Shown: positions 22,695 through 39,972, numbered from the stretch's first letter. The stretch is 64,000 nt of DNA from an uncultured Candidatus Rokubacteria bacterium (GCA_963789955.1 CAWBMV010000020.1:86111-150110), one strand, 5' to 3'. Numbers and translations are program-made. Notes: generated by a model from the sequence alone, not told the origin.

Positions 22695-22702
22695 GGGTTA
22701 CC

Positions 22703-25700
22703 TCAGAAGCCCAGAGCCCGCACTTCGTCGCGGAAGCGCTGGACGTTGCGGAGCTTGATCTCCTCGTAGCCTCGGATCACATCGGGCAGCCCGGCAAGCT
22801 TCACCGCCCGCTCGTAGCTCTCCGGCGAGAGACCGACCAGCGCCTTTTCGACGAGGGCCCGATACTCGCCGACCAGCTGCCGCTCGACCCGGCGCACCGC
22901 GGCGAACCCGAAGGGATCGAGCGGCGTGCCGCGCAGCACCTTCATGCGGGCCAGCACCTTGAAGACCGAGCCGAACCACGGGCCGAGCTTGAGCTTCTCC
23001 TTGAGACCGAAAGCCCGGAGCATCGGCGGGTGGAGATTGTAGGAGAGCTTCACCCCGCCGGGGAACTCCTCGGCCAGTGCGCGGCCGATGTCGGGCTTGA
23101 GCGAGAGGCGCGCCACTTCGTACTCGTCCTTGTAGGCCATCAGCTTGAAGAGATAGCGCGCGACCGCCTCGGCCAGGCGCGACTCTCCCGGCACGGTTGC
23201 GGCTTCGGCCTCGCGCACGCGCCGGACGAACTGAGCGTACGCGCGCGCGTAGCCCGCGCTCTTGTAGGCGATCAGCTCGGGCACGCGGATCTCCAGGAGC
23301 CGCTCGAGCTCGCCCGCGCCGCCGACCGAGTCCACGATGGTGCGTGCCTGCGCCGATAGCTCCGGCGCCGTCGCGATGGCGCCCAGGCGCCGCCGGACCA
23401 CCGTGCGCGCCCACGCTGGATCCGCCACCAGCAGCCGGCCCACGCGGAACGCCTGGCTGTTCATCTGCACGGAGACGCCGTTCAACACGATCGCTTCCTC
23501 GATCGCCGCCTCGCTCACGGGCAAGGCGCCCGCCTGCCAGGCCGCGCCGAGCACGATCATGTTGGCCGCCATGTGGTCGTCGAAGAGCGTCTCGGCCAAT
23601 CCGAGCGCGTCCAGGAAGACGTTCTCGTCCTTGCGGGTCACGCGATTGATCGAGGTGATCGAGTCCGTTGGCCTCGGGGAACTCGACCGCCGTCGACGTC
23701 ACCATCGCGCCGGTCGGCACCTGGCTGGTCGAGACGATCGCGATCGTGCGCTCGGGGCGCGCGTGATCGAGGTTCTGCGGCGAGGTCGCCACGAGGATGT
23801 CGAAGCCGAGATAGCAGTCCGCGGAGCCGGCCGCGATCTTGGACGAGGCCTGCGTGGCCCGGTCGAGGATCTTCAGATGCGAGACCACCGGCCCGCCCTT
23901 CTGGCTCAGACCGGTCTGATCGAGGCCGCGCACGAGCTTGCCGTCGAGGAGCGCGGCGGTGCCCAGGATCTGGTTGACCGTGACGACGCCGGTGCCGCCG
24001 ATGCCCATCATGAAGACGTTGGCCTCGGCCGGGACCTTGGCGTCCGGCTCGGGCAAGGTCCGGTCGACCTTGAAGACCCGGCGCTCCTTCTTTCGCGGAT
24101 CCGCGAGCGGCACCACCGTCAGGAACGACGGGCAGTCACCCTTCAGGCACGAGTAGTCCTTGTTGCAGGACGACTGATGGATCTGCGTCTTGCGCCCGAA
24201 CTCGGTCTCGACCGGATGCACCGACAGGCAGTTGCTCTTCACGCCGCAGTCGCCGCATCCCTCGCAGATCGCCTCGTTGATGAAGACGCGCATCTCGGGA
24301 TCGGGCAGCCGGCCACGCTTGCGCAGGCGCCGCTTCTCGGCGGCGCACCGCTGGTCGTACACGAGGGCCGTGACGCCGGGGATATCGCGCAGCAACCGCT
24401 GAGCCTCGTCGAGCCGATCGCGATGCCACACCTCGACGCCGGACGCCCACGCGGTGCCTTTCGGATACTTGTCGGGCTCGTCGGTCATCACGATGATGCG
24501 CTTGACGCCCTCGGCGGCGATCGAGCGCGTCAGCTCGGGCACCGGCATCGCGCCCGCGGCGTCCTGCCCGCCCGTCATCGCCACCGCCGAGTTGTAGAGG
24601 ATCTTGTAGGTGATGTTGGCGCTCGAGGCGACCGCCTGACGGATCGCCAGGGAGCCGGAGTGGAAGAAGGTGCCGTCGCCGAGGTTCTGGAAGAGATGCT
24701 TCGTCTCGGTGAAGGGCGCGATGCCCACCCACTGCACACCTTCGCCGCCCATGTGCGTGAGCCCCATCGTGCGGCGGTCCATCAAGAGCGCCATGCCGTG
24801 GCAGCCGATGCCCGCGCTGGCCATCGACCCCTCGGGCAGTACGGTCGAGCGGTTGTGCGGGCAGCCCGAGCAGAAGTAGGGCTGACGGCTCAGGGTCAGC
24901 GGCGCGGGCCGCTGGCGCAACGCCTCGAGCAGCGCCACACGCGCGGTGATCGAATCGAGATGGATTCGGCGCTCGAGACGCGAGGCCAGGATCTGGGCGA
25001 TCCGGTCGGCGTCGAGCTCGCTGTCGGCGGGCACGAGCGGACGGCCCTGCTCGTCCTGCTTGCCGACCACCCGGGGGCGCTCGGCCTGGTTATAGAGGAT
25101 GTCGCGGATGAAGAGCTCGCAGAACGCGCGCTTCTCCTCGATGACCAGGAGCTCCTCGAGACCCAGGGCGAACTCGCGGACCGTACCCCGGCTCCATCGG
25201 GAACATCATCTCGATCTGCATCAGACGGATGCCGTACTGCCGGAGCGCCGCGTTGTCGAGCCCGAGCTCGGCGAGCGCCTCGCGCAGGTCGTAGTACGTC
25301 TTGCCGGGCGCCGCGATGCCGAGCCACGCGTTCGGCGTCGGCAACGTGATGCGATTGAGCTTGTTCGCCGCGGCGAACGCCTTCGCCGCCTCGAGCCGCC
25401 CGTAGTGGATCTCGCGCTCGGCCTCGAGCCCCCACGGCGGCATCAAGAGCGGGGTCTGCCGCGCCTGCCAGGGCCGTCCTTCATAGAGGAAGCCCGGATC
25501 GGCGATGACGATACGGTCGGGCGCCACCTCGGCCGTGCCGATCTCGTCGGCCACGTTGGTGACGATCTTGAAGCCGACCCAGAGCCCGGAGTAGCGCGAG
25601 AGCTCGAAGCCGAGCCGGCCGAGGTCGAGGATCTCCTGCGCGCTGCCGGGATAGAGCACCGGGAAGAGCGCGTCGTAGAACGCCACTTCCGAGTGCGACG

Positions 25701-26169
25701 GGATCGTCGATGACTTCGAGAGCGGATCGTCGCCGCCGAGCGCCAGCACGCCGCCGTTGCGCCCGACACCGGCGAAGTTCGCGTGCTTGAAGATGTCGCC
25801 GGTGCGATCGACACCCGGGCCCTTGCCGTACCACATGCCGAGCACGCCGTCGTACTTCGGCTGCGGGAACAGATTGGCGAGCTGGCTGCCGTAGACGGCC
25901 GTCGCGCCGAGGTCCTCGTTGACACCCGAGAGGAAGACGACGTTGTGCTGACGGAGCAGGTCGGGGTTCCGCTCCAGGGTGAGATCCAGTCCGCCCAGCG
26001 GCGAGCCGCGATAGCCGGAGATGAGGGTAGCGGTGTTGAGCCCGCGGCGCTTGTCGGCGCGGTGCTGGTCGAGCGGCAAACGCACCAACGCCTGAATGCC
26101 CGAGAGGAAGATGAGACCTTCCTCCTGGCGGTATTTGGCGTCCAGAGTGAAATCACGCTTGATCGCCAT
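22703..26169 (-). CDS. fused indolepyruvate ferredoxin oxidoreductase family protein (frameshifts near 23650 and 25185)
   Basis: SGYRGSPLGG, NEDLGAT, WYGKGPGVDR, PYFCSGCPHN, GDGTFFHSG, CEGCGDC ferredoxin motif, GIGGTGVVT, KLMAYKDEYEVARL. Confidence 0.92.
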
Positions 26170-26249
26170 GGGTCTCCTCTCGAAGTGACTGCACGTATGA
26201 TACGGGGCGCCACGGGTGGGGCGCAAATCGGTCCGGAGGTGCGAGCGCG

Positions 26250-26672
26250 ATGATCGAGATCAGGCCGTGCCGTCTCGAGGAGTGTGCCGCGGTGCTGGCG
26301 ATGTGGGCGCGCGCGGGCGCGATTCCAAGCCCGACCGACACCCTCGAGGAGGTGAGCCACCTCGTGCGCGAGCACGCCGACTCTCTCCTCGTCGCGATCC
26401 GCCAGGGTTCCATCGTCGGAAGCATCATCGGCGGATGGGACGGCTGGCGCGGCAACATCTATCGCCTGGCGGTCGCCCCGGAGGCCCGGCGGGCCGGGCT
26501 CGCGCGGCGGCTCGTCGACGCCGCCGAGCGCATGCTCGTCTCGAAGGGCGCGCGCCGGTTCTCAGCCCTCGTCGAGCGCCACGAGGCTCACGCGGTCGGT
26601 TTCTGGGACGCCCTCGCGGACCGTGGCTGGCACCGCGACGAGCGCATGATGCGCTACATCAAGATGGCCTAG
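26250..26672 (+). CDS. GNAT family N-acetyltransferase (YpeA-like)
   Basis: GWDGWRGNIYRLAVAPEARRAGLA acetyl-CoA motif A. Confidence 0.88.
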   Translation: MIEIRPCRLEECAAVLAMWARAGAIPSPTDTLEEVSHLVREHADSLLVAIRQGSIVGSIIGGWDGWRGNIYRLAVAPEARRAGLARRLVDAAERMLVSKGARRFSALVERHEAHAVGFWDALADRGWHRDERMMRYIKMA

Positions 26673-26740
26673 CCGGCGGCTGGAAAAGGCCCATCTGCTA
26701 CGTTGGCGCCCTCGTAGCTGGACCTTTTCCAGCCGCCGGC
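26672..26740. terminator. long hairpin between convergent genes
   Basis: Perfect 18-bp arms GCCGGCGGCTGGAAAAGG (26672-26689) / CCTTTTCCAGCCGCCGGC (26723-26740) plus inner GCTACG/CGTAGC stem. Confidence 0.55.
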
Positions 26741-26757
26741 CGGTCTGCAGGCTTCGG

Positions 26758-27228
26758 CTAGGTCGGGCGCCACAGGCCGCGGTGGGCGCCGCGTGCTTCG
26801 CGCTGGAGCTTCATGAAGAGGTCCTGGTGTCGCACGTTCGGCGGGACCGTCATGACCTGGGCATAGCCGAGTCGAAGCAGCTCCGCGTTGACCATCGTGT
26901 TGCCCACCCAGACGTAGGCCAGGAGCCGCCCGTAGCGATCCCGAGTGCGCACGTCCAGCTCGAGACGGACGTGGTGGCCATCGACGAGACGGCGGTTCAC
27001 CTCGGCCGCTTCACGACCGCCCGGCTCTTCGCCCTTGATCGGATGGTGGATCTCCGGAGAGTTGACGCCGATGTAGCGGATCTTCTCCACGCGATCGCCG
27101 AGCTGCACATAGATCGTGTCGCCGTCGACGACCTTGACGACCGTGCCTTCGATCGAACCGGCCGCTGCCGAGCTCGCCGCGAGGAACAGGAGGAGCGGAA
27201 CGAGAAGATGAGCTCGGCGGAGCGCCAC
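26758..27228 (-). CDS. secreted thermonuclease (SNase) family protein
   Basis: Signal peptide; VVDGDTI, RYIGVNSPE, DRYGRLLAYV, NAELLRLGYA, RGLW. Confidence 0.92.
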   Translation of the reverse strand: MALRRAHLLVPLLLFLAASSAAAGSIEGTVVKVVDGDTIYVQLGDRVEKIRYIGVNSPEIHHPIKGEEPGGREAAEVNRRLVDGHHVRLELDVRTRDRYGRLLAYVWVGNTMVNAELLRLGYAQVMTVPPNVRHQDLFMKLQREARGAHRGLWRPT

Positions 27229-27291
27229 GCCGACACGGTGTCACCGCGGGTCGACGGGTGTCAAGAATTGGAGACGGCGAAGCGTGGATTG

Positions 27292-27531
27292 CTACTGGAC
27301 GCGGAACATGGCGTAGCCGAGGGACCTCAACTGCGTGTCGACGAACGGCTGATGGCGGCGATCGCTGCTTCTCCGCTCGCCGGTGTCCCTGTTGGCCTCG
27401 CCCAGGCGACGGTCACGACCGGATCGACGATCCAGGAAGACCTCGACGTTTTCTTCGGCGGCGAACTGCCGTGTGAGGTACTCACACAGGCTGGCCTGGT
27501 CGCGCGCGACGATGAAGTAGTGCCGAGTCAT
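27292..27531 (-). CDS. Arg-repeat microprotein, paralog 2 (79 aa)
   Basis: MTRHYFIVARDQASLCEYL...VEVFLDRRSGRDRR...ERRSSDRR...LRSLGY. Confidence 0.75.
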   Translation of the reverse strand: MTRHYFIVARDQASLCEYLTRQFAAEENVEVFLDRRSGRDRRLGEANRDTGERRSSDRRHQPFVDTQLRSLGYAMFRVQ

Positions 27532-27571
27532 GACTGCCACACGGCAATTTTCCACGAAACGCGCGCGAGGG

Positions 27572-28091
27572 TCAAGGTTGGCGGAGGCGTCCGAGGGCCC
27601 GTCGGGCCTGTCGCGCTTTCTTGGAAAGTCGGCGGGGGTTACCGCGCTTCTCCCGACCCGGCTCATCGTCGGAATCGTCCTTTGAATCGGGCGTATCCGC
27701 GCCCGACGAGCTTTCCGGAACTTCCAGCGCTTCCAGAAATTGCTCGGCCGTCAGCACCGCGCTCCCGGCCCGCCGGGCGGCGTCCTGGACCTTCCGATCC
27801 GAGCTGACGACGACGGCGCCGTTTCGCAGCTGCCGCGCGAGCCGCATCAGCTCATCGTCGGCCGTCAGCGGCGGGCGCGAGAAGACCACACGAATGCGTC
27901 CCGGCGGCGGCGTGCCGCCGGAGAGTCGCGCCCCGTCGAACACGACGGTGAACTCGTCCTTCGGGGCGCGGTCGGCCCGCGCGATGAGAGTGCACGAGCG
28001 CTCGCCGTCCCGCTTCCAGGCTCTCGGCTTCTCGAGCCCGGAGGTCCGGATCGCGTCGGATGAGGTTGTAGCCATCGACGAGCCAGCGCAT
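27572..28091 (-). CDS. YacP/Rae1-like NYN-domain ribonuclease (frameshift near 27990)
   Basis: MRWLVDGYNLI, VVFDG, TADDEL, VVSSDRKVQ acidic NYN motifs. Confidence 0.82.
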
Positions 28092-28132: not shown

Positions 28133-29311
28133 ATGGACGATCCTTCGCTGATCCTGGTCGGGGGCGGCTCCCTGACGCCCGAGTCCGCGCGGTCCCTTCC
28201 GCCCGGCGGCATCGTCCGATTGATGGTCTATCGACCCTCGATCCCGCCGGTTGACGTGGGTGACGTGGTAGAGGTCATCCCGGGAGCGCGCGGACGCGTC
28301 GGTGACCTCGTGCTCTGTGTCGACGCCGATCGATGTGAGCTCGGACGGGTTATCAGTCATGACGGACCTTCCGTCGTGATCGAAGTCGGCGCGGAGGGGA
28401 TTCGCCACGCGCTCGGCGCCGGTGCCGTCCTCGGTGTCGCGGCGGCTCTCGAGCAGGGCGATCTGCTGTTCGACCTCCAGCGCGGACGCTGGCGCGCGGC
28501 GGGCCGCCTCGCGGCGACCGTCCCGGCCCGGCTCGGCGGCTTCATGACGGCCCTGTCGTGGCTGGAGCGCCTGCGCCGCCCATTGTTCCCGCCGCTCTTC
28601 ATGGGCAGCGAGGCGCAGCTGCTGGAGCGCCTCACCGCCGCCTACGACACTGAGGTCGAGGTCACCGGCCGCGAGACGGCGCTCCTGCCCGAGGAGCAGA
28701 CTTTGCTCGAGCATCATCTACGGCCAGGCCAGCGGCTGCTCGACGTGGGCTGCGGGGCGGGCCGCGAGGCGATCGGCTTCGCGCGCGCAGGGCTATCCGT
28801 CGTCGGGATCGACGTGGCGCCGGCGATGGTGGCCCTGGCGCGCGCGCGGGCGCGGCAGGCGGGACTCACGATCGAGCTCGCAGTTGCCGAGCCTCTGACC
28901 TTGCCCGCGAACTTCGGCCGGTTCGACGCGGTCTACTTCAGCCCGGGGATCTACGCCCACATCCCCAGTCGAGAGCGCCGCGTGCGGACGCTCTCGCGGC
29001 TACGCGAGATGCTCGCCCCAGGCGGGCTGATCGTGGTCGGTCCCGTTCTCGCCCCGACCCTGCGAGCGTTCTCCCGCGCCCGTCTCGTCGACGCGCTCCG
29101 GAGGGTTGGCCGCCGTGCGGGCCTCCACCGGCTGGCCGAGCCAGGCGACCGCTTGTATCGCGGTCACGCGCTCGACCGCGCCGCGACCTCGCACCGCTAC
29201 ATCCACTACTTCAGCACCAGCGAGGAGGCCGAGATGGAGATGGGGGAAGCCGGCCTCGCGGTGACCGAGCGGCTCGACGTGACCTGCTGGATCCTCCGCC
29301 CGCGCAGCTGA
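28133..29311 (+). CDS. degenerate S24/S26-like domain fused to class I SAM-dependent methyltransferase
   Basis: C-half LLDVGCGAGRE, VVGIDVA, FDAV, LAPGG; N-half aligns by eye with the S26 peptidase at 33623-34068. Confidence 0.8.
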   Translation: MDDPSLILVGGGSLTPESARSLPPGGIVRLMVYRPSIPPVDVGDVVEVIPGARGRVGDLVLCVDADRCELGRVISHDGPSVVIEVGAEGIRHALGAGAVLGVAAALEQGDLLFDLQRGRWRAAGRLAATVPARLGGFMTALSWLERLRRPLFPPLFMGSEAQLLERLTAAYDTEVEVTGRETALLPEEQTLLEHHLRPGQRLLDVGCGAGREAIGFARAGLSVVGIDVAPAMVALARARARQAGLTIELAVAEPLTLPANFGRFDAVYFSPGIYAHIPSRERRVRTLSRLREMLAPGGLIVVGPVLAPTLRAFSRARLVDALRRVGRRAGLHRLAEPGDRLYRGHALDRAATSHRYIHYFSTSEEAEMEMGEAGLAVTERLDVTCWILRPRS

Positions 29312-30487
29312 CTAGCGAAGCTGGCGTGCCGCCAGCCAGCACACTCTCAGCGGATGCACGGCGCGATAGAGCGGCACCTGCCACGGCTCGAGCGCGTAGT
29401 GGTGCCTGAGCCACGTGGCCGAGGGAAAGAACGTCCACGCGAAGACCCGCATGACGTCGGACGCGCGGTCCATCAGGAGCGTCTGAGCCGGATAGACGCG
29501 CGTGTCGTCGAGCGCGCCCGCGAGACTCGGTGGCGCGGACGCGCCGATGCGCTCCGCGACCGCCGCGCGGCGCCATCGGCCCCGCTCGAGGCGTTCGAGG
29601 AGCCTGGCAGGGAGCGGCGTGTCGAACGAGCGCGTGACGACACAGAGCGTCCAGCCGATGAGCGTCCGGACGCGCCAGCGGTCGGCCTCCTTCACGAGGA
29701 GGTCCCAGTCGAGCTCAGCGGCAAATCGGCGGACGACCGCATCGATATCGGCGTACCAGAGCGCGCGCGCGAAGTCCGAGCCGAGCGTCAGGTGCAGGAC
29801 GAGGTGCAGCAGCAGATCCTCGGGCGAGAGCATGAGGCTCTGACCCTCGGGCGTGAGGAGCGGCCGGGCCCGACTCCACATCCCCTCGTGGTCGACCTCG
29901 ACGACCCCCTCGAATCGGAGGTAGCGCGCGGCATGCCAGTGGAGATCGATCCGCGTCCCGTCGCGCACGAGCTCTGCGAAGCTCCGCGACTCGCCGAGGA
30001 GATCGGCTCCTTCCCCGGGCGTCCGATATCCGAGGGCCCGCAGCGTGGCGAGCGCGACAGCGCGTTCTGTCGGACGCACGAGGAGGTCGACGTCCGCCAT
30101 CGGTCGGAGACCAGGCTCGGCGTAGACGACATTCGCGAGCGCCATACCCTTGAGGGTGAGTGTCACGACACCCGCCTGGCGAAGCGCCGCGGTCGCTTCG
30201 CCCCAGTGACGCGCGAGCACGGCGTTCGCGGCCCAGACGGCCCGCGCGACCTCGGTCAGACGACGACGCGCCGGAGTCGGCAGGCGATCGAGCAGATCGA
30301 GGCGATGAAGGTGGGAGCGGAGAAGAGGCGCCGTGCCTTCGCGAACCGCGAGCTCGACGAGAGCGGGCCAGTCGACGGCGCCGGACACGAGGGCCGCGAG
30401 CTCGACATCACCCGAGGATTCGACATGGCTGCGCGCGCCCAGGAGCAACAGTCGCGCGTCCGGATAGAGCTCGGCGCGCGGGAGCAT
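29312..30487 (-). CDS. nucleotidyltransferase of the lasso-cluster-associated (NTP_transf_5-like) family
   Basis: LTLKGMALA..VY..PGLRPMADVDLLV, IDLHW, LSPEDLLLHLVLH, WYADID; ATG 30487. Confidence 0.85.
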   Translation of the reverse strand: MLPRAELYPDARLLLLGARSHVESSGDVELAALVSGAVDWPALVELAVREGTAPLLRSHLHRLDLLDRLPTPARRRLTEVARAVWAANAVLARHWGEATAALRQAGVVTLTLKGMALANVVYAEPGLRPMADVDLLVRPTERAVALATLRALGYRTPGEGADLLGESRSFAELVRDGTRIDLHWHAARYLRFEGVVEVDHEGMWSRARPLLTPEGQSLMLSPEDLLLHLVLHLTLGSDFARALWYADIDAVVRRFAAELDWDLLVKEADRWRVRTLIGWTLCVVTRSFDTPLPARLLERLERGRWRRAAVAERIGASAPPSLAGALDDTRVYPAQTLLMDRASDVMRVFAWTFFPSATWLRHHYALEPWQVPLYRAVHPLRVCWLAARQLR

Positions 30488-30492
30488 GCCGC

Positions 30493-30654
30493 CTACGACG
30501 TCGTGCTCGTCCGACTCCCCTTGCCCATACTCGTCCGCTGCGCGTTGCTGCACGTCCCGTTGGTGGCGCGGCAGCACGTGGTCGTGTCGGCGCCGAAGAT
30601 ACTACTCGGCTCGAGCATGGGCTTCTCGTAGGGCCGCTTGTCCTGGGTTGCCAT
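30493..30654 (-). CDS. putative RiPP precursor peptide (53 aa)
   Basis: GGAGGAG RBS; MATQDKRPYEKPMLEPSSIFGADTTTCCRATNGTCSNAQRTSMGKGSRTSTTS with a YxxPxL RRE-binding motif and a Cys/Ser/Thr-rich core; sits between rSAM and nucleotidyltransferase genes. Confidence 0.85.
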   Translation of the reverse strand: MATQDKRPYEKPMLEPSSIFGADTTTCCRATNGTCSNAQRTSMGKGSRTSTTS

Positions 30655-31789
30655 CGTCAGCTCCTCCCGCGGTACGGATCTGGTAAAGACGGCGCTGGGC
30701 GCCGGCAAGCGTGCGCGCCCGCTCGTGGCATTGCTTCCACTCGCCCTCGCCGCGTTCGAGCAGGTTGTCGCCATGGCAGCGGTTGCAGAACCCGACGACC
30801 TCGCAGGAGGAGCACTCCGGCAGGTCGGCGTAGTGCTGGACCGACAGAAGATCCCGGATCGCCGGCGGCGGGGCCGTCCAGAGCTCGCGGAACGGCGTTT
30901 GCCGCACGTTGCCCATGGGGACGCGAAACGCGATGCACGGGAACACGTTGCCGTACGGATCGATGCAGCAGCCATTCGTCGCGGGTCCGCACGTGGCGCG
31001 CTGGCGGGCAACGTCCTCGGGGCGGCCTTCCTGCGGCTCGAGCTGCTCGCTCCACGTCGACTCGCGGAGGTACCGGAGCAGCTCGTCGCCGTCGAGCTGA
31101 TACTCCTGCGGCACGTGACCATCGCGCGGCACAGCGCCGTCGATCCGGGGGCTCACCTCGCAGCTATAGGTGTGAGTGAACACGCCGAGGTCCTTGCCGA
31201 GCCGGTCGAGCTTCGCGAGGCCGTCGATGTTCGGCTTCATCACGACGGTTTTGAGGTAGACGCGCAGGCCGTGGCGCTGCAGGCGCTCGACCGCGGCCAT
31301 GAGCCTCCGGAAGGAGCCCGGCACGCGGGTGATCGCATCGTGCACCGCCGGATCCGCGGAGAAGATCGACAGCTCGACGGTCAAGGGCTCGAGCGCCGCC
31401 AGCCGCTCGACCTTCGCCTCTGTGAGGCCGATCCCGTTGGTGAAGATCCGGTACGCGAAGCCGCGCCGGCGCGCATGCTCGGCAATGTCGAAGAAGTCGG
31501 GCCGTACCATGACCTCGCCGCCCGAGAGCGTCAGATAAAGCCCGCCCATGCCGGCCAACTCGTCGAGGAGCCTGCGGATCTCGTCGAGCGTGAGCTCGTG
31601 GCGGCGCACCTCCTGCTCGCGACCGTGCTCGACCACGCAGTAGCAATGGACGCACTGCTCGTTGCACCGGTAGGTGAGCTCGAGATGGACGTTGAGGGGC
31701 GTCCGATTCCGGTCCGCCTTGGCGCTGATCAGCGCCATCAGCGAGGCATCGCCGAGTCCCGCGTTCTGAGCGCAGCCTTCGAAGATCAT
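30602..31789 (-). CDS. radical SAM/SPASM peptide maturase
   Basis: ELTYRCNEQCVHC (CxxxCxxC), SGGE, TNG; SPASM C..ATNGCCIDPYGNVFPC...CSSCEVVGFCNRC; ATGA overlap with the PqqD gene. Confidence 0.92.
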   Translation of the reverse strand: MIFEGCAQNAGLGDASLMALISAKADRNRTPLNVHLELTYRCNEQCVHCYCVVEHGREQEVRRHELTLDEIRRLLDELAGMGGLYLTLSGGEVMVRPDFFDIAEHARRRGFAYRIFTNGIGLTEAKVERLAALEPLTVELSIFSADPAVHDAITRVPGSFRRLMAAVERLQRHGLRVYLKTVVMKPNIDGLAKLDRLGKDLGVFTHTYSCEVSPRIDGAVPRDGHVPQEYQLDGDELLRYLRESTWSEQLEPQEGRPEDVARQRATCGPATNGCCIDPYGNVFPCIAFRVPMGNVRQTPFRELWTAPPPAIRDLLSVQHYADLPECSSCEVVGFCNRCHGDNLLERGEGEWKQCHERARTLAGAQRRLYQIRTAGGADDGNPGQAALREAHARAE

Positions 31790-32082
31790 CGGCTCTCTCC
31801 CTTGCGCCGGCGCTCGATGGAGACCAGCTTGGCGTCGGCGAGCCGTTCGAGGAACTCGATCGCGTCGGCACGAATCGTCGGCTCGGGCGCTTCGAACTCG
31901 GCCGCGAGCACGCCGACGATCTCGTCCACGCTCCGCGCGCCGTCGCACAGATCCCAGATCCGCGCACCGACGCTGTTGAGAGGGTAAAGCAATCCGCCTT
32001 TGACGTCTACGACGAGAGCCTCCGTGTCGAGCGTCCGCCACGGCACCGATTTGCGCACGGGAAACGCGTCAGTCCCGTCCAT
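31786..32082 (-). CDS. PqqD family RiPP recognition element (RRE)
   Basis: LNSVGARIWDLCDGARSVDEIV..L..EF.....IRADAIEFLERL. Confidence 0.92.
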   Translation of the reverse strand: MDGTDAFPVRKSVPWRTLDTEALVVDVKGGLLYPLNSVGARIWDLCDGARSVDEIVGVLAAEFEAPEPTIRADAIEFLERLADAKLVSIERRRKGESR

Positions 32083-32872
32083 CGAGATAGCTCCAGAGCG
32101 CGGGCTCCGGTTTGAACGCGAGCTCCCACGTGGGCACCGTCGCGACGAGCGTGGCGAGCGTCTCGAGGAGTCGCGTGGTCACGCGGTCGTCGCGTTTGGG
32201 CAGCATGACCTCCGGGAACGCGCGGGCGACCGCCTCCGAGGCCGGCAGTCGCCGGCGGGCGAAGTGATCGGCCTTGCGAAGAAAGCACAGACCACGAATC
32301 GGGGCGCGCTCGTTCGTGCGAGCCATGGACGGGCCGCCGGATCCATAGAAGGGCGTCGCGCAGGCCTCCCAGCCTCGCGGGCCGGGACGTAGCGCGATCG
32401 TCTCGTCGTTGAGCACGGGCCGGTCGCCCGCGAGGCCGGCGATGGTGGTCTTGCCGCTGCCCGAGGGACCTGAGAAGACCCACGCGCGACCTCCGTCGAC
32501 GACGGAGGACGCGTGGAGCAGGACCCCACCTTTTTGCATGAGGAGGAAGCTGCACAGGAGCCGGAACAGGTCGGGATTCAGCGCCGGTCCGGGGCCAGCA
32601 CGGAAATCCACCCGGCGGCGTCCGAGATCGCCGTGCGCTCGAGAAGGATGGCTTGCGAGCGCGAAGCGACCCCCCTCCCACGTCGCCGACGGGCGCGGCG
32701 TGCGGCCCGGACGATAGCGCTCGGTCGCCCGCACGCGTACTCCGAAGGTCGGCGCCCGTCGTGACAAGAACGGACCGTATCGATCCTCCACCCACGCGCG
32801 CGCGGTGGCGCCGAGACCCGCGACGCCGAACACGACGCCCGCGACCTCGATCCGCGGAGTCCGTTCAGCCAA
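32069..32872 (-). CDS. HPr kinase-like peptide kinase
   Basis: GVLLHASSV, Walker A FSGPSGSGKTT, LNDE, ATPFYG. Confidence 0.82.
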   Translation of the reverse strand: MAERTPRIEVAGVVFGVAGLGATARAWVEDRYGPFLSRRAPTFGVRVRATERYRPGRTPRPSATWEGGRFALASHPSRAHGDLGRRRVDFRAGPGPALNPDLFRLLCSFLLMQKGGVLLHASSVVDGGRAWVFSGPSGSGKTTIAGLAGDRPVLNDETIALRPGPRGWEACATPFYGSGGPSMARTNERAPIRGLCFLRKADHFARRRLPASEAVARAFPEVMLPKRDDRVTTRLLETLATLVATVPTWELAFKPEPALWSYLDGRD

Positions 32873-33626
32873 CGGCCACGCCTTCGGTCAGCGGATTGGA
32901 CGCGTCAAGCCCGCGGCAGCGCAGGACCGCCACGACGCGGGTCGCGAGGTCGAGGGTGCGCTCGACGGCGGGGCGCCGCCGGTCGGCTTGCCAGATCGAA
33001 GGGAGCAATGCGCGCACCGCCTCGGCCGCACTCAGCGGTTCCTGGCCGCCGGGCAACCCGAGCGTCGTCGCGCGCCAGCCGTTCGCAGGCCGCGGGCCGT
33101 CGCCGACGAGAAACGGCGTCACAAGGACGGCGACGTGGTCCGCCGTGGGCCTCACCGCAAACCAACCAGCAGTCGCGGACGAAGGTATCGCCCAAGCCGG
33201 CAGCCCGCAGATAAGAGTCGCTGATTCGGTAGGGCCGAAGCAGGCGGCCTGAACGAGCAAGGTCTCGCACTCGGCGAGCCACAGCGCGGTCAGGGTCCGC
33301 ATGAGGCCGGCGACGTCGAATCCCGCCGCTATCTTGACGGTGACACGACCGCCCGGCACGTCGACGACCGCCCGGTAGTAGCCCGTCGACACGCGAAGAT
33401 TCCGACCGCGACGGCTCACGGTGGCCGCGTCGGCGACCGTGTCGCCGACCGATCGCCAGCCGTGGCGCCCGTCGCGCTCCTCGTAGTCGATTCGCACGGT
33501 CACGTCGGGCCGACGGCACGTGATGAATGCGGGATGGTTTCGAGCCCAGAACCCGGGCTTCGGGAAGGGACAGGACAGCTGAAAAACGATACCCGCGACG
33601 TCGACCTTGTCGGTGTGGCGCCTCAC
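32865..33626 (-). CDS. degenerate HPr kinase-like paralog (no Walker A)
   Basis: Shares VAG(I/V)VF, F...R.P...VR, TPF and ..EAV with 32069-32872, but has LLVQAAC for LLHASS and LICGLPA for FSGPSGSGKT. Confidence 0.6.
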   Translation of the reverse strand: MRRHTDKVDVAGIVFQLSCPFPKPGFWARNHPAFITCRRPDVTVRIDYEERDGRHGWRSVGDTVADAATVSRRGRNLRVSTGYYRAVVDVPGGRVTVKIAAGFDVAGLMRTLTALWLAECETLLVQAACFGPTESATLICGLPAWAIPSSATAGWFAVRPTADHVAVLVTPFLVGDGPRPANGWRATTLGLPGGQEPLSAAEAVRALLPSIWQADRRRPAVERTLDLATRVVAVLRCRGLDASNPLTEGVAVG

Positions 33627-34068
33627 GCCCGCGGCCGCGCGCGGCAGCGCGTACCAGCCACGCCGCCGCTCCGAAGGAGCGCGCGGCCGTGAAGATCGCC
33701 AGCGCCCGTTGGCGGAGCGTCGACAGGTCGACGGTGACGCCGCGACGCTCGAACGCCGTCACGATGCCGAGGATCTGCGGCGCGGTCACCACCTCCGGCC
33801 CGACACCGCGATTGTCCGCGCGGGTCAGCAGCGCGGCGCCGCGCCGGCCGATCACGCGGTGACACACGAGGGTGCCCTCGCTCTCGTACGCGAGCAGATC
33901 GCCGAATCGCGCAGGCGCCGGAGGCGTGACGAAGATCCACGCGCCCGCACCGAGCAGGGGTCGCATGCTCCGGCCGCGTATCGGCAACCAGACCGACTCG
34001 CCGGCCCCGAGGCGTTCGCGGAGGATCTCGGTCACGACCGGTCGCCAGACGGCGGCGGGGCTCGACAT
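33623..34068 (-). CDS. S24/S26 family (signal peptidase I-like) Ser-His peptidase; apparent 1-nt indel near 3' end
   Basis: IRGRSMRPLL (catalytic Ser), GDLL, CHRVI, TRADN, ILGIV; natural stop probably the TGA at 33623 overlapping the next start. Confidence 0.78.
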
Positions 34069-34119
34069 ATCGCCTCATCCTACCCCGAATCATCGCCGCC
34101 CTCTGCTACCATCGCGCGC

Positions 34120-35736
34120 GTGACCGCCGCGACCCGCTGGCCCGAAGCCCACGCGTCGCGCGGGCTCGTCGCGACCCCGCACGCGCTCGCTTCCGAGGCC
34201 GGGCTGGCGATCCTCGCGCGCGGCGGCAACGCCGTGGACGCCGCGATCGCAGCCGGCGCAGCGATCGCCGTCGTCTATCCGCACATGAACGGGGTCGGCG
34301 GGGACAGCTTCTGGCTGATCTACGACGGGCGCCATCGCCGGCTGCGCGCGCTGAACGCGGCGGGCCGATCGGCGGCGGCGGCCGATCTCGAGCAATATCG
34401 CGCGCGCTTCGGCGTAGCGATTCCGGTGCGCGGCGGGGTCGCGGCGCTGACGGTGCCCGGCGTCGTCTCGGGCTGGTGGGCGGCCCACGCGCTGAGCCGC
34501 GACTCGCTGGGCTCCCCCATCACCTGGAGCACGCTGCTCGAGGCGGCGATCCATCACGCGCGCGACGGCTTCCCGCCGTCACAAAGCCAAGGTCGCGAGA
34601 CCGCCGACGCCACGGATCTCTTCGGTGACGCGACGCCGGCCGACCTCCGCGAGTCACTCTGGCCCGTCTTTCATCCCGAGCTCTTGAAGCGCGAGCGGTT
34701 CGTCCAGGCGGATCTGGCGTCGACCCTGGAAGAGATCGCCCGGAGCGGGGGTGACGCGTTCTATCGCGGCGCGCTCGCTCGCCGCCTCGCTCGAGCCGCT
34801 GGTGCCGCCGGCAGCCTCCTGACCGCCGACGATCTGGCGCGCCACCGGCCCGAGTGGGTCGAGCCGCTGCGCATTCCCTACCGCGGCGGCGAGGCCACGA
34901 GCTTTCCGCCGCCGACCCAGGGTTTCGCCGCGCTCGCGATCCTGTCGCTGCTCGAGGGGTTCGAGATCAAGTCCCTGGCCGAGGCCGACTACGTGCACCT
35001 CGTCGTCGAAGCGACGAAGCTCGCGTTCGAGGACCGCGATCGCTATCTCGCCGATCCGACGGTCGCGTCCGTTCCGGTCGCCCAGTGCCTCGATCCGGCG
35101 CGCCTCGCCGAGCGCCGCCGGCGAATCTCGCGACGGGCCGCGATGCCGGCCGCCGGACCGGCCGCGAAGGGCGACACGATCGCCATCGTCACCGCGGACG
35201 CGCAGGGGAACGCGGTGTCACTGATCCAGAGCCTCTACTGGGAATTCGGCTCGGGCGTGGTCGCGGGCGACACCGGCGTCCTTCTTCAGAACCGGGGCGC
35301 GTTCTTCTCGCTCGACCCGGGGCACGTGAATTGCCTGGCGCCGCACAAGCAGACGGCGCACACCTTGATCCCGTCCATGTACCTCGTCGACGGACGTCCG
35401 CGTCTCGTCTACGGCACGATGGGCGGAGAGGGCCAGCCGCAGACGCAGGCGGCCCTCGTCACGCGCATCGTCGATCGCGGACTCGGTCCACAAGCGGCGG
35501 TCGAGGCGCCGCGCTGGCTCTTCGGGCGAACCTGGGGCGAGGAGACCCGCTCGCTGAGGCTCGAGGATCGATTTGGCGACGACGTCCGGGACGCGCTTCG
35601 CGAGCGGGGGCACGAGGTGGAGATCGTCGAAGGTTGGAGCGATCTGATGGGCCACGCGCAGGTCATTCGTCTCGACGCGACCGGACTCACCGGCGCTTCG
35701 GATCCACGCGCCGACGGGGCGGCTCTCGGCTTCTAG
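34120..35736 (+). CDS. ggt: gamma-glutamyltransferase family protein
   Basis: GGNAVDAAIA, GVGGDSF, TVPG, GDT (autoprocessing Thr), SLIQS, LQNRG, GTMGGEGQPQ, SDPRADG. Confidence 0.92.
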   Translation: MTAATRWPEAHASRGLVATPHALASEAGLAILARGGNAVDAAIAAGAAIAVVYPHMNGVGGDSFWLIYDGRHRRLRALNAAGRSAAAADLEQYRARFGVAIPVRGGVAALTVPGVVSGWWAAHALSRDSLGSPITWSTLLEAAIHHARDGFPPSQSQGRETADATDLFGDATPADLRESLWPVFHPELLKRERFVQADLASTLEEIARSGGDAFYRGALARRLARAAGAAGSLLTADDLARHRPEWVEPLRIPYRGGEATSFPPPTQGFAALAILSLLEGFEIKSLAEADYVHLVVEATKLAFEDRDRYLADPTVASVPVAQCLDPARLAERRRRISRRAAMPAAGPAAKGDTIAIVTADAQGNAVSLIQSLYWEFGSGVVAGDTGVLLQNRGAFFSLDPGHVNCLAPHKQTAHTLIPSMYLVDGRPRLVYGTMGGEGQPQTQAALVTRIVDRGLGPQAAVEAPRWLFGRTWGEETRSLRLEDRFGDDVRDALRERGHEVEIVEGWSDLMGHAQVIRLDATGLTGASDPRADGAALGF

Positions 35737-36948
35737 CTCAGCGGCAGCTCCCGCTCGAAGACCGTGAACGGGAGAGCGGCGCGCGGCGTCGAGGGCCTGG
35801 CGGATTTGCGCCTCGCCGCGGCCGGCGCCCTGCTGGAGCAAGGTCTCGAAGAAGGCCACGTAGAACGCGTCCGGCTCGACGACGACGGCCACCCGCGCCC
35901 GCAGTCCGGTCGCGTCGATCGTCGTCCGATAGGTGAGCGTCGTGCTCTTGCCGGGCATGAGGCGGGTGTCGAAGAGCTCGCGCGAGAGGTCGAGGGCCAC
36001 CTCCGCGACCGATGATCTGCTCCCGCCGGCTGCCGGCGACGACCTGGCCGGTATCGTCGACCAGCTCGAGCGCTCAGGACCACGCGCGGCGTGACGTACG
36101 TCGGCAACGCGTGGCCGATGCGCGTGCTGCTCACCCGGAGCGTGACGAGCGCGAGCTCGCCGGGGCGATAGCGCGGGGCCCCCGCCTTGGCCTCGATCGT
36201 GAGCCCGGACCGCACCATGCTCGAGATCGTGGATCCCGCGCCAGCGGTGGCGCCGGTCGGGCATGTGGCAGTCCTGGCACTGCACGCCCTGGCGCGCGAA
36301 GCGGCTCGCCTTCCACTCGTCGTAGGTCGCCTGGAGCAGCTTGCCGTTGAGCGCGAACCCGTCGGGCGTGAACTGGTGGCAGCCCCGGCAGAACTCGGCC
36401 TTGAGGAACGCCGGCGTTCGCGTCACGCCGTTGTGGGGCAAGGTCTCATGCGGGGCGCCGCTCGCCAGCGAGCCGTCTCGCCGGGGCGGGCCGAAGCGTT
36501 CGTGGCCCCGGACGTGACAGCCCGCGCACGGCACGCCCCGGCCCGCGAGCGAGGCGTCGTAGTCCGGGTTCTCGCGAAGCTCGCGGCCCACGGCCGCGAA
36601 GGGTCCCTGCTCGGCGAGCGGGGCGTGACAGACGAGACACGCGTGCGCCGACGACGGATCGCTCTCCCGCATCTCGACGAGCTGGCCGGCGACACCGGGT
36701 CCGCTCGCGGCGGCGTGCAGGCTCTCGCGCCAGTCGGCGAGCTGCGCGGGATGGCAGGTCCCGCACGACTCCGGCTGGAGCGAGGCTTCCAGCGGCGAGA
36801 ATCGCGCCGGCGGCGCGCCTTGCGGCGCCAGCGGCTGGCGCCAGTGCCGTCGGATGAAATCCTGGATCGCGTCGGCGCCGGCGGCCGCCGCGGCCCCGAG
36901 CAGCACGGTCGCGGCCGCCGCGCACGCGAGACGGAAGCGAAGTCGCAT
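35733..36948 (-). CDS. exported pentaheme c-type cytochrome (several frameshifts in the 3' third)
   Basis: Signal peptide; five CxxCH motifs CGTCH, CLVCH, CAGCH, CRGCH, CQDCH; GHALPT C-terminal segment. Confidence 0.85.
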
Positions 36949-37027
36949 CGACGGGATGCATGATAGCGTGCGCCGACTGCTGTACAGTAGGATCCGCAGT
37001 CATCCTGACCGCTTCCGGAGAACGCTG

Positions 37028-39585
37028 GTGGATCCGTATCGCCTGCCGCGACACGTGCGACCGACCCGGTACGATCTGCGCCTCGAGCCCGATCTGGCGA
37101 CCCTGACGTTCACGGGCGACGAGACGATCACGCTCGAGATCCAGGAGCCGACCGCGGAGGTGGTGCTCAATGCCGTGGACCTCGCGTTCGGCGAGGCGAC
37201 GCTCGCGAACGCGCGCGGCGAATCGCTGCGCGGAACGCCGGTCGTCGACGAGGCCGCCGAGCGCTGCCGCATCGCGTTTCCGTCGCAGATCGCGCCGGGT
37301 ACCTGGCGGCTGCGCCTCGCCTTCACCGGCACCTTGAACGACAAGCTGCGCGGCTTCTACCGGTCGAGCTACAAGGATCCGACCGGCGAGGCGCGGCTGA
37401 TGGCCGCCACCCAGTTCGAGGCGACCGATGCGCGCCGGGCGTTTCCGTGCTGGGACGAACCGGCCTTCAAGGCCGTGTTCGCGGTGACGCTCGTGATCGA
37501 TCCGACGCTGACCGCGGTGTCGAACACGTCGATCGTCGGCGAGCGCGTCGAGCGCGGCCGGAAGGTCGTGACCTTCGCCGACACGATGAAAATGTCGACC
37601 TATCTGGTGGCGTTCGTCGTCGGCGAGCTCGAGGCCACCGACGCGATGATGGTCGGCCGGGCCCCGGTCCGCGTCTGGTGCGTCCCGGGCAAGCGTCATC
37701 TGGCCGCGTTCGGCCACGAGATCGGCGTCGCCTCGCTGCGATTCTTCGAGGAGTACTACGGGCTGCCGTATCCGAGCGACAAGCTCGACCTGCTCGCGAT
37801 TCCGGACTTCGCGGCTGGGGCCATGGAGAACCTGGGCGCGATCACCTTCCGGGAGACCGCGCTCCTGGTCGACGCCCGCGCTGCGTCCCACTCCGAGCTG
37901 GAGCGGGTCGCCGACGTGGTCGCGCACGAGAACGCGCACATGTGGTTCGGCGATCTGGTGACGATGACGTGGTGGAACGGCATCTGGCTCAACGAGGCGT
38001 TCGCCACGTTCATGGAGATCCTCGCGGTCGACGCCTGGAAGCCCGAGTGGCAGCGCTGGACGACGTTCGGCGTCTCGCGCGCCGCCGCCCTCTCGGTCGA
38101 CGGGCTGCACTCGACGCGCCCGATCGAGTTTCGCGTCGAGGCCCCGCGCGACGCCGACGCGATGTTCGACGTGCTCACCTACGAGAAGGGCGCGTCGGTG
38201 CTGCGCATGCTCGAGCAGTATCTCGGCGCGACGGTGTTCCGTGACGGCGTGCGCGAGTACCTCCGGCGCCACGCCTACGCCAACGCCGAGACCGGCGATC
38301 TCTGGGCCGCGCTCGGGCGGGCCGCGAACCAGCCGATCCCCGAGGTGATGGACGCCTGGATCTTCCAGCCCGGCTATCCGCTCGTGAGCGCCCGGCTCGA
38401 CGGCAACCAGCTCGTGCTGAGCCAGCAGCGCTTCACCTATTTGCCGGAGCCCCTGCCCGGCTCGACGCCTTCGCCGCGCGAATCAGCAGTGGCAGGTGCC
38501 GGTGCAGGTCCGCTTCAACGCCGCGGGGCGCGTATCGACGGAGCGGCGGCTCCTCGCGGGCGGCGAAGCCCGCGTGCCGGCTCCCGAACGCCTCGAATCC
38601 GTCCTCGTCAACGACGGCGGCCACGGCTTCTACCGCGTCCGCTACAGCGGCGAGCTGCTCGAGCGCCTCCTCGGCGGGCTCGAGCGGCTCGGCGGCATCG
38701 AGCGCTTCAACCTCGTCAACGACGCGTGGGCGGTGACGGTGGCCGGCCACATGGCCGTGACCGACTATCTCGAATTGACCGACGCGCTTCCGCGGCGAGC
38801 GCGATCGCAACGTGTGGTCGGTGCTGATCGCCTCGTTCTCGATGTTGAACCGTATCGCGGAGCCGGCGCAGCGGCCGCGACTCGCCGCACTCGTCCGCGA
38901 CCGCGTCGCGCCGGCCTTCACCGAGCTCGGCTGGACACCGCGAGCCGGAGAAGACGAGCTCACGCGCCAGCTCCGCGGCGACCTGGTGCGCGTGATGGGC
39001 GCGCTCGGCGACGATCGGGCCGTGCAGGCGCGGGCCACCGAGCTCTACGCGAAGGCGGCGGCCGAGCTCGATCCCAACGTCCTGCCCGCCATCATCGGCG
39101 TGCTCGCGCACGCGGGCGACGGGGCGCGTTACGACGAATTTCTGAAGAAGTTCCAGTCCGCGGCGACGCCTCAGGAGGAGCAGCGCTTCCTCTACGCGCT
39201 GGCCGCCTTCCGCCAGCGCGAGCTGCTGACCCAGACGCTCGCCCGCGCGATCAACGGCGAGTTCCGGACCCAGGACGCACCGTTCGTCGTGCGCTCGCTG
39301 CTCACGTCCGTGTACGGGCGCGAGCTCGCCTGGGAGTTCGTGAAGACCAACTGGGACACGATGGAGCGGCAGTACCCGAAGGCGGGACTCCGGCGACTGG
39401 CCGAGGGCGTCGTCGGGCTCGCGACGCCGGAGCTCGAGCGGGACGTCCACGCCTTCTTCCAGGCCCGCCGGCCCGAGTTCGGCGGCAAGACCCTGGAGCA
39501 ATACCTGGAGCAGCTTCGCATCGCGGTCCGCCTGCGCGAGCGCGAGTCGACGGCGCTCACCACCTATCTGGCGCGATTCGCCTGA
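37028..39585 (+). CDS. pepN: M1 family aminopeptidase with ERAP1-like C-terminal domain (frameshifts near 38480 and 38790)
   Basis: TQFEATDARRAFPCWDEP, GAMEN, HENAH..WFG..NEAFA (HEXXH-18-E), YEKG. Confidence 0.9.
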
Positions 39586-39627
39586 GGGACATCGACGGAT
39601 CTATCACGACGCCCGCTGGAGCGGGCG

Positions 39628-39972
39628 TTAATCCGCCGCGTCCGGCGCGTAGCGGAGAACTCGTACCTTCTCCATCGTGACCAGACCGCCCTTCATGAGG
39701 CGGTCGATCTCCGGCAGCACTGCCGCCAGATGCTCCTCGCTGTCCACGACCTCGATCACGAGCGGGAGATCCTCCGAGAGCCTCAGGATGTTCGCGGTGT
39801 GGATTACCGAATTGGCGCCGAAGCCGGCGACGCCTTTGAGAACGGTCGCGCCGGCCAGCCCCCGAGCTCGCAGCAGCTCGAGCAGCGCGGTGTGCAGCGG
39901 TCGGTGACCGGCTCGATCGGACTCTCCGACGAACAGGCGCATCAGAACTTGCTCCCCGTCGATCTTCCGCAT
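39628..39972 (-). CDS. DUF190 (PII-like) protein
   Basis: LFVGESD, GLAGATVLKGVAGFG, LSEDLPLVIEVVD; typical partner downstream of crcB. Confidence 0.88.
   Translation of the reverse strand: MRKIDGEQVLMRLFVGESDRAGHRPLHTALLELLRARGLAGATVLKGVAGFGANSVIHTANILRLSEDLPLVIEVVDSEEHLAAVLPEIDRLMKGGLVTMEKVRVLRYAPDAAD

Follow-up and report, generated by a model that had tools for sequence, protein, structure and literature searches.

Introduction

Two described kinds of pathway for peptides that are made on the ribosome and then post-translationally modified (RiPPs) stand closest to the gene cassette analysed here, which lies in a stretch of 64,000 nt from an uncultured Candidatus Rokubacteria bacterium (GCA_963789955.1 CAWBMV010000020.1:86111-150110; contig C20 of genome G000, which is 87.2% complete), hereafter called the window. 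The first kind is the linear polyphosphorylated peptides (LPPs) of Bacillota, encoded by lppA-K-B-S-D-N clusters situated in capsule loci (Popov et al., Nat Commun 2026, PMC13381572). In that system, Asn33 and Asp70 of LppB, a RiPP recognition element (RRE), hold the leader Pro and Tyr; the peptidase LppS is RRE-dependent, needs Ser29/His68/Asp93 and cleaves after F-3/E-2/T-1; and the kinase LppK polyphosphorylates core Ser3 and rejects Thr (S3T). The second kind is the phosphorylated lasso peptides paeninodin and pseudomycoidin, whose kinases phosphorylate the C-terminal Ser, after which PsmN adds a hexose (PMC8498205). RRE-Finder also reported lasso-like RREs without a cyclase and others beside radical S-adenosylmethionine (SAM) enzymes (rSAMs), where the present system is not described (PMC7470986). 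Comparisons with published work refer throughout to parts of the papers cited.

A first-pass annotation had proposed that the window holds a minus-strand operon, abutted by a convergent methyltransferase, that combines an rSAM with lasso-type tailoring enzymes. All eight genes were recovered in the proposed composition and order by open reading frame (ORF), Pfam and profile matches (Table 1). Judged from sequence, the cassette is a real and widespread radical-SAM variant of the LPP/lasso phosphopeptide chassis, and it almost certainly represents a genuine RiPP pathway.

Results

Conservation of the Cassette and Its Precursor

The rSAM is found at 65-95% identity in 5 of 60 relatives, and the genome collection contains four further carriers at 69-91% identity (L041-L044). 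The gene order of the window is preserved in L037, L039, L040, L041 and L043, and L025, L028 and L044 have the methyltransferase within the operon and in its orientation. More distant cassettes, with rSAMs of 28-46% identity, occur in other Rokubacteria, in many Acidobacteriota and in a few other phyla. A set of 71 loci was compiled, for which at least 3 kb on both sides was required and from which L021-L024 were removed as duplicates of L037-L040. The rSAM, the RRE and the kinase are each present in all 71 loci, the precursor in 69 and the S26 peptidase in 68; the nucleotidyltransferase occurs in 18, the S26-fused methyltransferase in 7 and an AsnB-like protein, within 7 kb, in none. This shared core bears out the earlier proposal of a conserved non-lasso cassette, including the conservation of the precursor in orthologous clusters. 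A tally of 'K1' in 42 loci was left out of account, as most of it is made up of cross-matches to the active kinase. The rSAM tree, built from 31 of 94 sequences without a characterised outgroup, supports the clade of the window (99/99) and not the deeper forks.

The precursor carries a YxxPxL leader (YEKPML) and Phe20, followed by a core with Cys27-Cys28-Arg29, Cys35 and a terminal Ser53. Among seven close orthologues, 388 pairwise differences fall on third codon positions against 117 on first and 96 on second positions. The precursor is thus under purifying selection and is therefore not a chance ORF. An iterated profile gave 84 distinct precursors, of which 82 end in Ser and two in Thr, while a terminal Ser is found in 108 of 987 called genes (11%) as background; with a profile of the leader only, the terminal residue is Ser in 79 of 81. 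A search of 1.84 billion representatives returned 905 precursor clusters (50% identity) at E<=0.001, and the terminal Ser is present in 148 of the best 150 of the 905 representatives, a count that is not independent because the profile includes the terminal position and matches mostly Acidobacteria-type precursors.

An alignment of 38 precursors shows no variation at Pro12, Cys27 or Cys35. A Phe stands seven residues before the first Cys in 150/150 of the best representatives and in 72/83 locus precursors, mostly followed by [EV]-T, and Lys or Arg stands at +2 from this Cys in 150/150 and 79/83, respectively. Pro and Phe are separated by a spacer of 7 in every one of the 74 locus precursors matched (of 84) and in 149/150 best representatives. 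In the clade of the window, the precursors contain a third Cys and their tail is longer. None of the NCBIfam models matched 13 family precursors, and a fourteenth gave a weak, unrelated match only.

Predicted Leader Binding, Cleavage and Phosphorylation

The discrete RRE has its best PDB matches in TbiB1, LppB (9x8z, E 1.2e-10) and PbaB1 (9x90). Its Asn36 and Asp73, which are kept in 31/32 sequences, correspond by spacing to Asn33 and Asp70 of LppB, and the RRE would bind the YEKPML leader. The catalytic triad of the peptidase is aligned as Ser34 (12/14), His70 (14/14) and Asp85 (14/14). By analogy with LppS, RRE-dependent cleavage by the S26 peptidase is highly probable. When the LppS register is applied, the cut is predicted after Phe20-Gly21-Ala22, which would release a core of 31 residues; this position is itself rather likely. 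The computed mass of the unmodified core is 3183.38 Da from Asp23 and 2765.21 Da from Cys27.

The active kinase retains His120, Walker A Lys141 and Asp156 in 24/24 sequences and Glu157 in 23/24. It has weak matches to ScmC, HprK-rel and PEPCK, all below cut-off, and its sequence matches among solved structures are PEPCK and generic P-loop proteins only. The kinase would phosphorylate the terminal Ser53, a step that is likely by analogy with the lasso kinases. This lasso precedent fits best because Ser3 is absent and the terminal Ser is nearly invariant: position 3 of the core, in the LPP register, is Leu in 149/150 best representatives, Ser in 1/74 locus precursors and Thr in the window.

An improbable alternative is that the kinase acts on an early-core Ser or Thr, as LppK does on core Ser3 (PMC13381572), and that the peptide is cut directly before Cys27, with the terminal Ser serving as a recognition element or as a substrate of the rSAM or the nucleotidyltransferase. 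Counted from the first Cys, Ala stands at -3 in 149/150 and Ser, Ala or Thr at -1 in 138/150 best representatives, which fits the small-x-small cleavage pattern of signal peptidases. However, the F-3/E-2/T-1 pattern required by LppS is preserved in the cassette precursors. In addition, position 3 is nearly always Leu, position 4 is Ala in 46/150 best representatives, and the Thr of the window is a residue that LppK rejects.

The degenerate paralogue has no Pfam match and was recognised by hhalign to the active kinase (99.3%, E 3.7e-20, 234 columns). It is without the His, the P-loop and the Asp-Glu pair, and its six orthologues, at 30-77% identity, are seen only in the clade of the window. By its sequence it looks catalytically dead, and it would probably act as a non-catalytic partner.

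Further Putative Tailoring Enzymes

The acidic residues of the nucleotidyltransferase are conserved as Asp132 (18/18), Asp134 (18/18) and Asp181 (17/18), and the enzyme has no meaningful relative among solved structures. In 10/10 genomes whose cassette is without the gene, it is encoded elsewhere in the genome. In an Acidobacteria order of 71 genomes, it is present in 12/12 genomes with the rSAM and, among the 59 without it (G097 included), in 4 at E<=1e-37 and in 15 at E<=1e-15. Since weaker homologues are found in 42/61 Rokubacteria, the family also has other roles. After the phosphorylation of Ser53, the enzyme would add a sugar to the phosphate in the manner of PsmN (PMC8498205). On this precedent, a sugar is somewhat the likelier group to be placed on the phosphate, and the nucleotidylated product envisaged at first, with a nucleoside monophosphate, is less likely than a glycosylated one. 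In the clade of the window, membrane proteins directly follow the nucleotidyltransferase at L041:10557-12482, L042:2060-5503 and L025:2303-3388, and the one in L041 has a match to PMT_2, a GT-C glycosyltransferase family.

The methyltransferase had been described as carrying an S26-like domain. The domain is present: a stretch of ~120 aa at the N-terminus of the enzyme matches the S26 profile (96.2%, E 2.5e-9). None of the 8 aligned orthologues has the catalytic His, however, and two retain the Ser, so that the domain looks catalytically dead from its sequence. The fused enzyme occurs in 9/61 relatives, all in an S26/RRE context, with G025 counted among the relatives without it. Eight of these are among the 17 genomes that have the cassette rSAM; in the ninth, the enzyme sits at the end of a contig in a unit of the form S26-RRE-methyltransferase. 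The methyltransferase is an optional but genuine member of the cassette. Because LppS was modelled in contact with both the RRE and the leader (PMC13381572), the dead S26 domain would by inference dock the methyltransferase on the RRE-leader complex. In the clade of the window, the enzyme would probably add a methyl group, and methylation of the peptide is considered fairly likely.

The rSAM-SPASM Enzyme

The rSAM contains the CxxxCxxC motif and eight SPASM cysteines (267, 274, 285, 326, 329, 335, 338, 354). It falls short of the cut-off for each of the 25 NCBIfam families among the matches listed, with AhbD (123 bits against 500) and MftC (121/265) as the best curated scores, and PqqE and NirJ at 103/381 and 113/515 bits. 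Membership of these cofactor families, which the first-pass annotation had named as a refuting condition, was rejected on the equivalog cut-offs, and no true MftC was found among 31 relatives. Searching the Atlas with this enzyme returned generic rSAM clusters.

The AlphaFold2 model of the orthologue L037 (predicted local distance difference test, pLDDT, 86) matches the folds of CteB, SkfB, SuiB, ChlB and anSME with Z of 23.7-24.8, a root-mean-square deviation of 3.5-4.2 and 280-318 aligned residues. Because these matches are tied within about one Z unit, the reaction is not given by the fold. The thioether formers SkfB and CteB are among the best matches by sequence and by fold, and the decarboxylase BlsE is the third PDB sequence match. 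The seven-Cys SPASM motif occurs in 84 of 94 family rSAMs. An eighth Cys, seven residues past the first, is present in 79 of the 84. At the position of this residue, Cys274 in the window, CteB carries Leu, SkfB Trp and PqqE Met.

It is very likely that the rSAM acts on the cassette peptide. The enzyme would crosslink the Cys27/Cys35 core, and a sulfur-carbon thioether is tentatively ranked first among the predicted chemistries. One reason is the pair of invariant cysteines, given that the peptide has no export signal and that disulfide machinery is not linked to it; the other is that the core of the window is without an aromatic residue for known C-C cyclophane chemistry. As an observation on the family, the rSAMs at L028:9633-10670, L030:9414-10487 and L032:8960-9871 have shortened or degenerate SPASM domains, in which the cysteines of the second auxiliary cluster are fully or partly lost, beside intact precursors.

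Absence of Lasso Machinery

Neither AsnB, transglutaminase, LanC/LanM or YcaO nor exporter families were found by the Pfam scan among 12 + 56 window ORFs, the 56 being selected from our own gene calls and long ORFs; the absence of a lasso cyclase, B2 peptidase, LanM/YcaO and exporter noted in the first-pass annotation thus holds within this set. In lasso peptides, the ring requires Asp or Glu at core position 7-9, and the window peptide has neither residue after Asp23.

An ordinary lasso peptide matured by a cyclase and a B2 peptidase encoded elsewhere is extremely improbable. The leader, the RRE, the kinase and the nucleotidyltransferase are all of lasso type, AsnB homologues exist in the genome, and a B2-like gene lies on a different contig in one of the five orthologue genomes. 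Beyond the missing acidic residue and the empty neighbourhoods of the 71 loci, however, no PF13471 protein was found in the 87%-complete window genome, its 7 AsnB regions (fragments) are best assigned as amidotransferase or asparagine synthase, with NF033535 scores of at most 76.6 bits, and none of these regions lies near the three PqqD genes of the genome. Lasso maturation in trans was rejected as largely refuted on these grounds, and the non-lasso nature of the product stands in cis and, as far as this genome shows, in trans. At G001:C297:46307-52810 (L128), a B2-like transglutaminase gene has an NTP_transf_5 gene ~5 kb away, which is possibly a true lasso cluster coexisting with the cassette in one orthologue genome.

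Secreted Proteins Beside the Cassettes

In 35/57 Acidobacteria loci, a secreted-type protein of 600-800 aa is encoded directly upstream of the precursor (L047, L051, L052, L055, L059, L071 and others); the gene is absent in 20 loci and a remnant in two (L053, L066). The AlphaFold2 model of this protein (pLDDT 79) is a beta-propeller with generic matches only, and the Atlas search led to unnamed clusters. Ten Rokubacteria loci have a Ser/Thr-rich propeller protein and seven of them also a small secreted partner, as found with profiles built from eight and six of these proteins. Such Ser/Thr-rich secreted proteins, with a C-terminal PQQ_2-like propeller, stand beside or inside the Rokubacteria cassettes L026-L030, L034-L036, L091 and L106, often paired with a secreted protein of ~150 aa that belongs to no Pfam family. 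A propeller-precursor fusion in L104 was rejected as a frame artefact. Further relatives adjoin Wzc/Wza, O-antigen ligase, GT4 or GT-C genes. An end use of the peptide at the cell envelope is possible, at somewhat below an even chance.

It is very unlikely that the product is instead an intracellular or periplasmic cofactor or ligand, excised from the core like PQQ or mycofactocin and used by the secreted propeller. The lack of an exporter agrees with this idea, as do the upstream propeller genes of Acidobacteria and the propellers near ten Rokubacteria loci, several with PQQ_2 repeats. On the other hand, a profile search found no propeller partner in the window genome, many Acidobacteria loci are without one, the propeller folds are generic, the core varies widely in length and sequence, and the cassette has a single peptidase.

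Discussion

The results are read, with moderate confidence, as a non-lasso peptide on an LPP-type chassis that would be trimmed, phosphorylated, probably sugar-decorated, modified by the rSAM and optionally methylated. Several points weigh against this reading. The genes, motifs, conservation and co-occurrence are observed, while every reaction is inferred. The active kinase was assigned by motifs and weak family matches, and HPr kinases have Asp-Asp where the kinase of the window has Asp-Glu. The LPP kinase acts on core Ser3 and not on the terminus, so that the family name leaves the site unfixed; nor is the phosphosite fixed by composition, as the core of the window holds 14 Ser/Thr. The co-occurrence of the nucleotidyltransferase was counted among kin, with 24-28 candidates scored per genome, and its counterpart LppN was inactive in B. 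subtilis (PMC13381572). No exporter was found near the window cassette. For the rSAM, the tied fold matches include non-thioether enzymes, the best curated scores fall on the decarboxylating AhbD and MftC families, and Cys274 is present in 83/94 sequences. In CteB, PapB and Tte1186, the first auxiliary cluster (AuxI) has three Cys ligands and an open iron site, at which the thiol of the substrate is bound (PMC10177961; PMC10470005), whereas AuxI has four ligands in anSME, SuiB and AhbD (PMC10452713). If Cys274 ligates AuxI, the open iron site is missing, and this is the main argument against a standard thioether.

A fully ligated AuxI would imply a different reaction, namely oxidative decarboxylation of the terminal (phospho)Ser of the MftC/AhbD/BlsE type, or oxidation, C-C or C-O coupling at the Cys-x-Lys/Arg motif, while the cysteines form a disulfide or bind metal. 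This alternative, which we consider unlikely, takes up the frequent eighth SPASM Cys, the AhbD and MftC scores and the BlsE match; daptides are likewise modified at an invariant C-terminal residue (PMC11002830). However, the AhbD and MftC scores are far under their cut-offs and reflect the common barrel, the terminal Ser is already accounted for by the kinase, and Cys274 is missing in 11/94 family members. Invariant cysteines in a peptide with neither export signal nor linked disulfide machinery also speak for their use by the rSAM in the thioether reading.

A broader proposal, which is somewhat unlikely, is that the cassettes form a new and large RiPP class, in which an eight-Cys rSAM performs unseen chemistry on a phosphoglycosylated peptide with an envelope role together with the secreted beta-propeller proteins, and dead S26 domains are recognition modules. 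For example, the enzyme may form a Cys-to-Lys/Arg i, i+2 link with no open iron site, or it may decarboxylate a terminal phosphoserine. The dead S26 domains may be a new kind of module for peptide recognition, through which tailoring enzymes are drawn to the RRE-leader complex.

Returning to the phosphopeptide chassis, the LPP clusters and the cassette are alike in the discrete lasso-type RRE, the YxxP leader, the Phe three residues before the predicted cut, the lack of a cyclase, the SpI-like Ser-His-Asp peptidase, the HprK-like kinase, the NTP-transferase and a frequent position beside polysaccharide genes. The combination of lasso-type tailoring without a cyclase, which had been put forward as a candidate new class, is therefore already present in LPP (PMC13381572). 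The two differ in that LPP leaders follow Px9Fx[T/A] and those of the cassette Px7F, and in that LPP has the core Ser3, which the cassette is without, and an MsbA-like exporter, of which none was found among the scanned window ORFs. Unlike LPP, the cassette has an invariant Cys-x-Lys/Arg, a second Cys, the terminal Ser, an rSAM-SPASM enzyme in every locus, the dead second kinase and the S26-fused methyltransferase, and its hosts are Methylomirabilota and Acidobacteriota. The main text of the LPP paper does not contain the term 'radical SAM', and its supplement has 10 Acidobacteriota SpI rows outside cluster 1 with the precursor given as 'ND' (PMC13381572). By the features of that paper, and as far as sequence comparison can tell, the cassette is LPP-like in recognition and cleavage but is not LPP.

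With the phosphorylated and phosphoglycosylated lasso peptides (paeninodin; PsmK/PsmN, PMC8498205), the cassette shares the HPr-kinase homologue, the C-terminal Ser, the nucleotidyltransferase and the discrete RRE; it differs in lacking the macrolactam cyclase, the B2 peptidase and the ring-forming Asp/Glu and in having the rSAM and the cysteines. The sactipeptide and ranthipeptide maturases SkfB, CteB, PapB and Tte1186 are likewise RRE-dependent rSAM-SPASM enzymes of the same fold (Z 24.4-24.8) that act on Cys-containing precursors, whereas the cassette rSAM has ~20% identity, the extra Cys274, a stand-alone RRE and kinase, nucleotidyltransferase and S26 partners. The uncharacterised SynChlorMet, GeoRSP and HPr-rel cassettes (TIGR04248-04251, TIGR04303, TIGR04352/04355) also unite PqqD, HprK-like and rSAM-SPASM proteins. 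The resemblance to SynChlorMet seen at first does not extend to membership, which was rejected because all Scm models are far under cut-off (ScmC 16.8/125, ScmD 27.5/100, ScmE 82.4/400, ScmF 61.3/400; GeoRSP rSAM 67.4/400); moreover, the window cassette has one rSAM, and no NCBIfam model matches the 13 precursors searched. The system is not described in the parts consulted of PMC12710340, PMC11002830 and PMC9389541. A characterised product of such an enzyme set was not found, in agreement with the first-pass annotation, in literature other than subscription journals and the supplements of bioRxiv papers.

The cassette unites LPP/lasso phospho-tailoring with radical-SAM maturation in a minimal core of five genes that is directly expressible. 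Its precursor belongs to a large family (905 clusters) of soil lineages such as Acidobacteriota and Methylomirabilota, and 13 members of that family had no match to a curated model. Its rSAM provides a sharp test of whether thioether formation requires an open auxiliary iron site, and its peptide would offer NTP_transf_5 enzymes, of which the LPP member was inactive, a natural substrate. With its dead S26 domain, the methyltransferase suggests a route of tailoring-enzyme recruitment that is new to the literature examined.

Locus Architecture and Neighbouring Genes

As shown in Table 1, the cassette occupies one strand, with the methyltransferase on the other. The minus-strand genes overlap or stand at most 5 nt apart, and the methyltransferase and the nucleotidyltransferase meet tail-to-tail at a 0-nt junction, which confirms the abutment proposed for the convergent gene.

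Table 1. Positions in the window, strand and supporting matches of the eight cassette genes.
Feature	Position	Strand	Basis
S24/S26 (archaeal SpI/SipW-type) peptidase, predicted RRE-dependent leader peptidase	33623..34068	-	PF00717 and TIGR02228 matches
Degenerate HprK-like paralogue, predicted non-catalytic partner	32865..33626	-	Profile match to active kinase
HprK/PEPCK-like P-loop kinase, predicted terminal-Ser phosphorylation	32069..32872	-	Conserved motifs, weak family matches
Discrete PqqD-type RRE, lasso-B1/LppB kind	31786..32082	-	PF05402, 70.9 bits; PDB matches
Radical SAM-SPASM enzyme	30602..31789	-	Pfam Radical_SAM and SPASM; orthologue end at position of 30657
53-aa precursor, YxxPxL leader	30493..30654	-	AGGAG ribosome site upstream; conservation
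NTP_transf_5 nucleotidyltransferase	29312..30487	-	PF14907, 158.8 bits
Class I SAM methyltransferase with N-terminal S26-like domain	28133..29311	+	Pfam, profile match

Two reading frames of the window overrun those of the orthologues. The peptidase frame extends to 32905, where DNA alignments place the orthologue stops at the match of 33623, and the rSAM frame extends to 30602, while the orthologues (374-377 aa) end at the match of 30657. Single-base indels at 33644, 33657 and 30665 are indicated both by the DNA alignments and by contigs assembled from independent runs, the first two in the contigs of X18 and X19 and the last, after 30665, in those of X1 and X2. Because the orthologue stops and these contigs both point to indels, the overruns are probably assembly errors in the window sequence. 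The RNA libraries X18 and X19, whose contigs cover 22 and 12 of 30 cassette bins, were not used as evidence of transcription, and a promoter and terminator scan gave a signal no better than chance.

Housekeeping genes of the window at 22698-26226, 27572-28091, 35218-36948 and 36854-39680 are split over frames and are intact in orthologues. They encode an indolepyruvate oxidoreductase, an NYN nuclease, a multiheme cytochrome and an M1 aminopeptidase, and their splitting is consistent with indel errors in the assembly. On one side, the cassette is flanked by a gamma-glutamyltranspeptidase and the multiheme cytochrome (34118-36948), and on the other by the NYN nuclease, an SNase and a GNAT protein (26250-28091). 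Flanking genes of this type border different cassette types in many Rokubacteria, which suggests a shared insertion site rather than cassette membership.

The genome of the window has a second cassette at G000:C21:84563-91121 (L032:7924-14125), next to Wzc/Wza-like genes. It consists of S26, RRE, two rSAMs, precursor, kinase, a third rSAM and nucleotidyltransferase, and its precursor, of 64 aa with three Cys, ends in Ser. Two YxxP-leader pathways, on C20 and C21, thus coexist in the cell of the window. In an Eisenbacteria locus (L109:2924-3439), two tandem precursors of 80 aa have the same leader, aromatic-rich cores and a terminal Ser.

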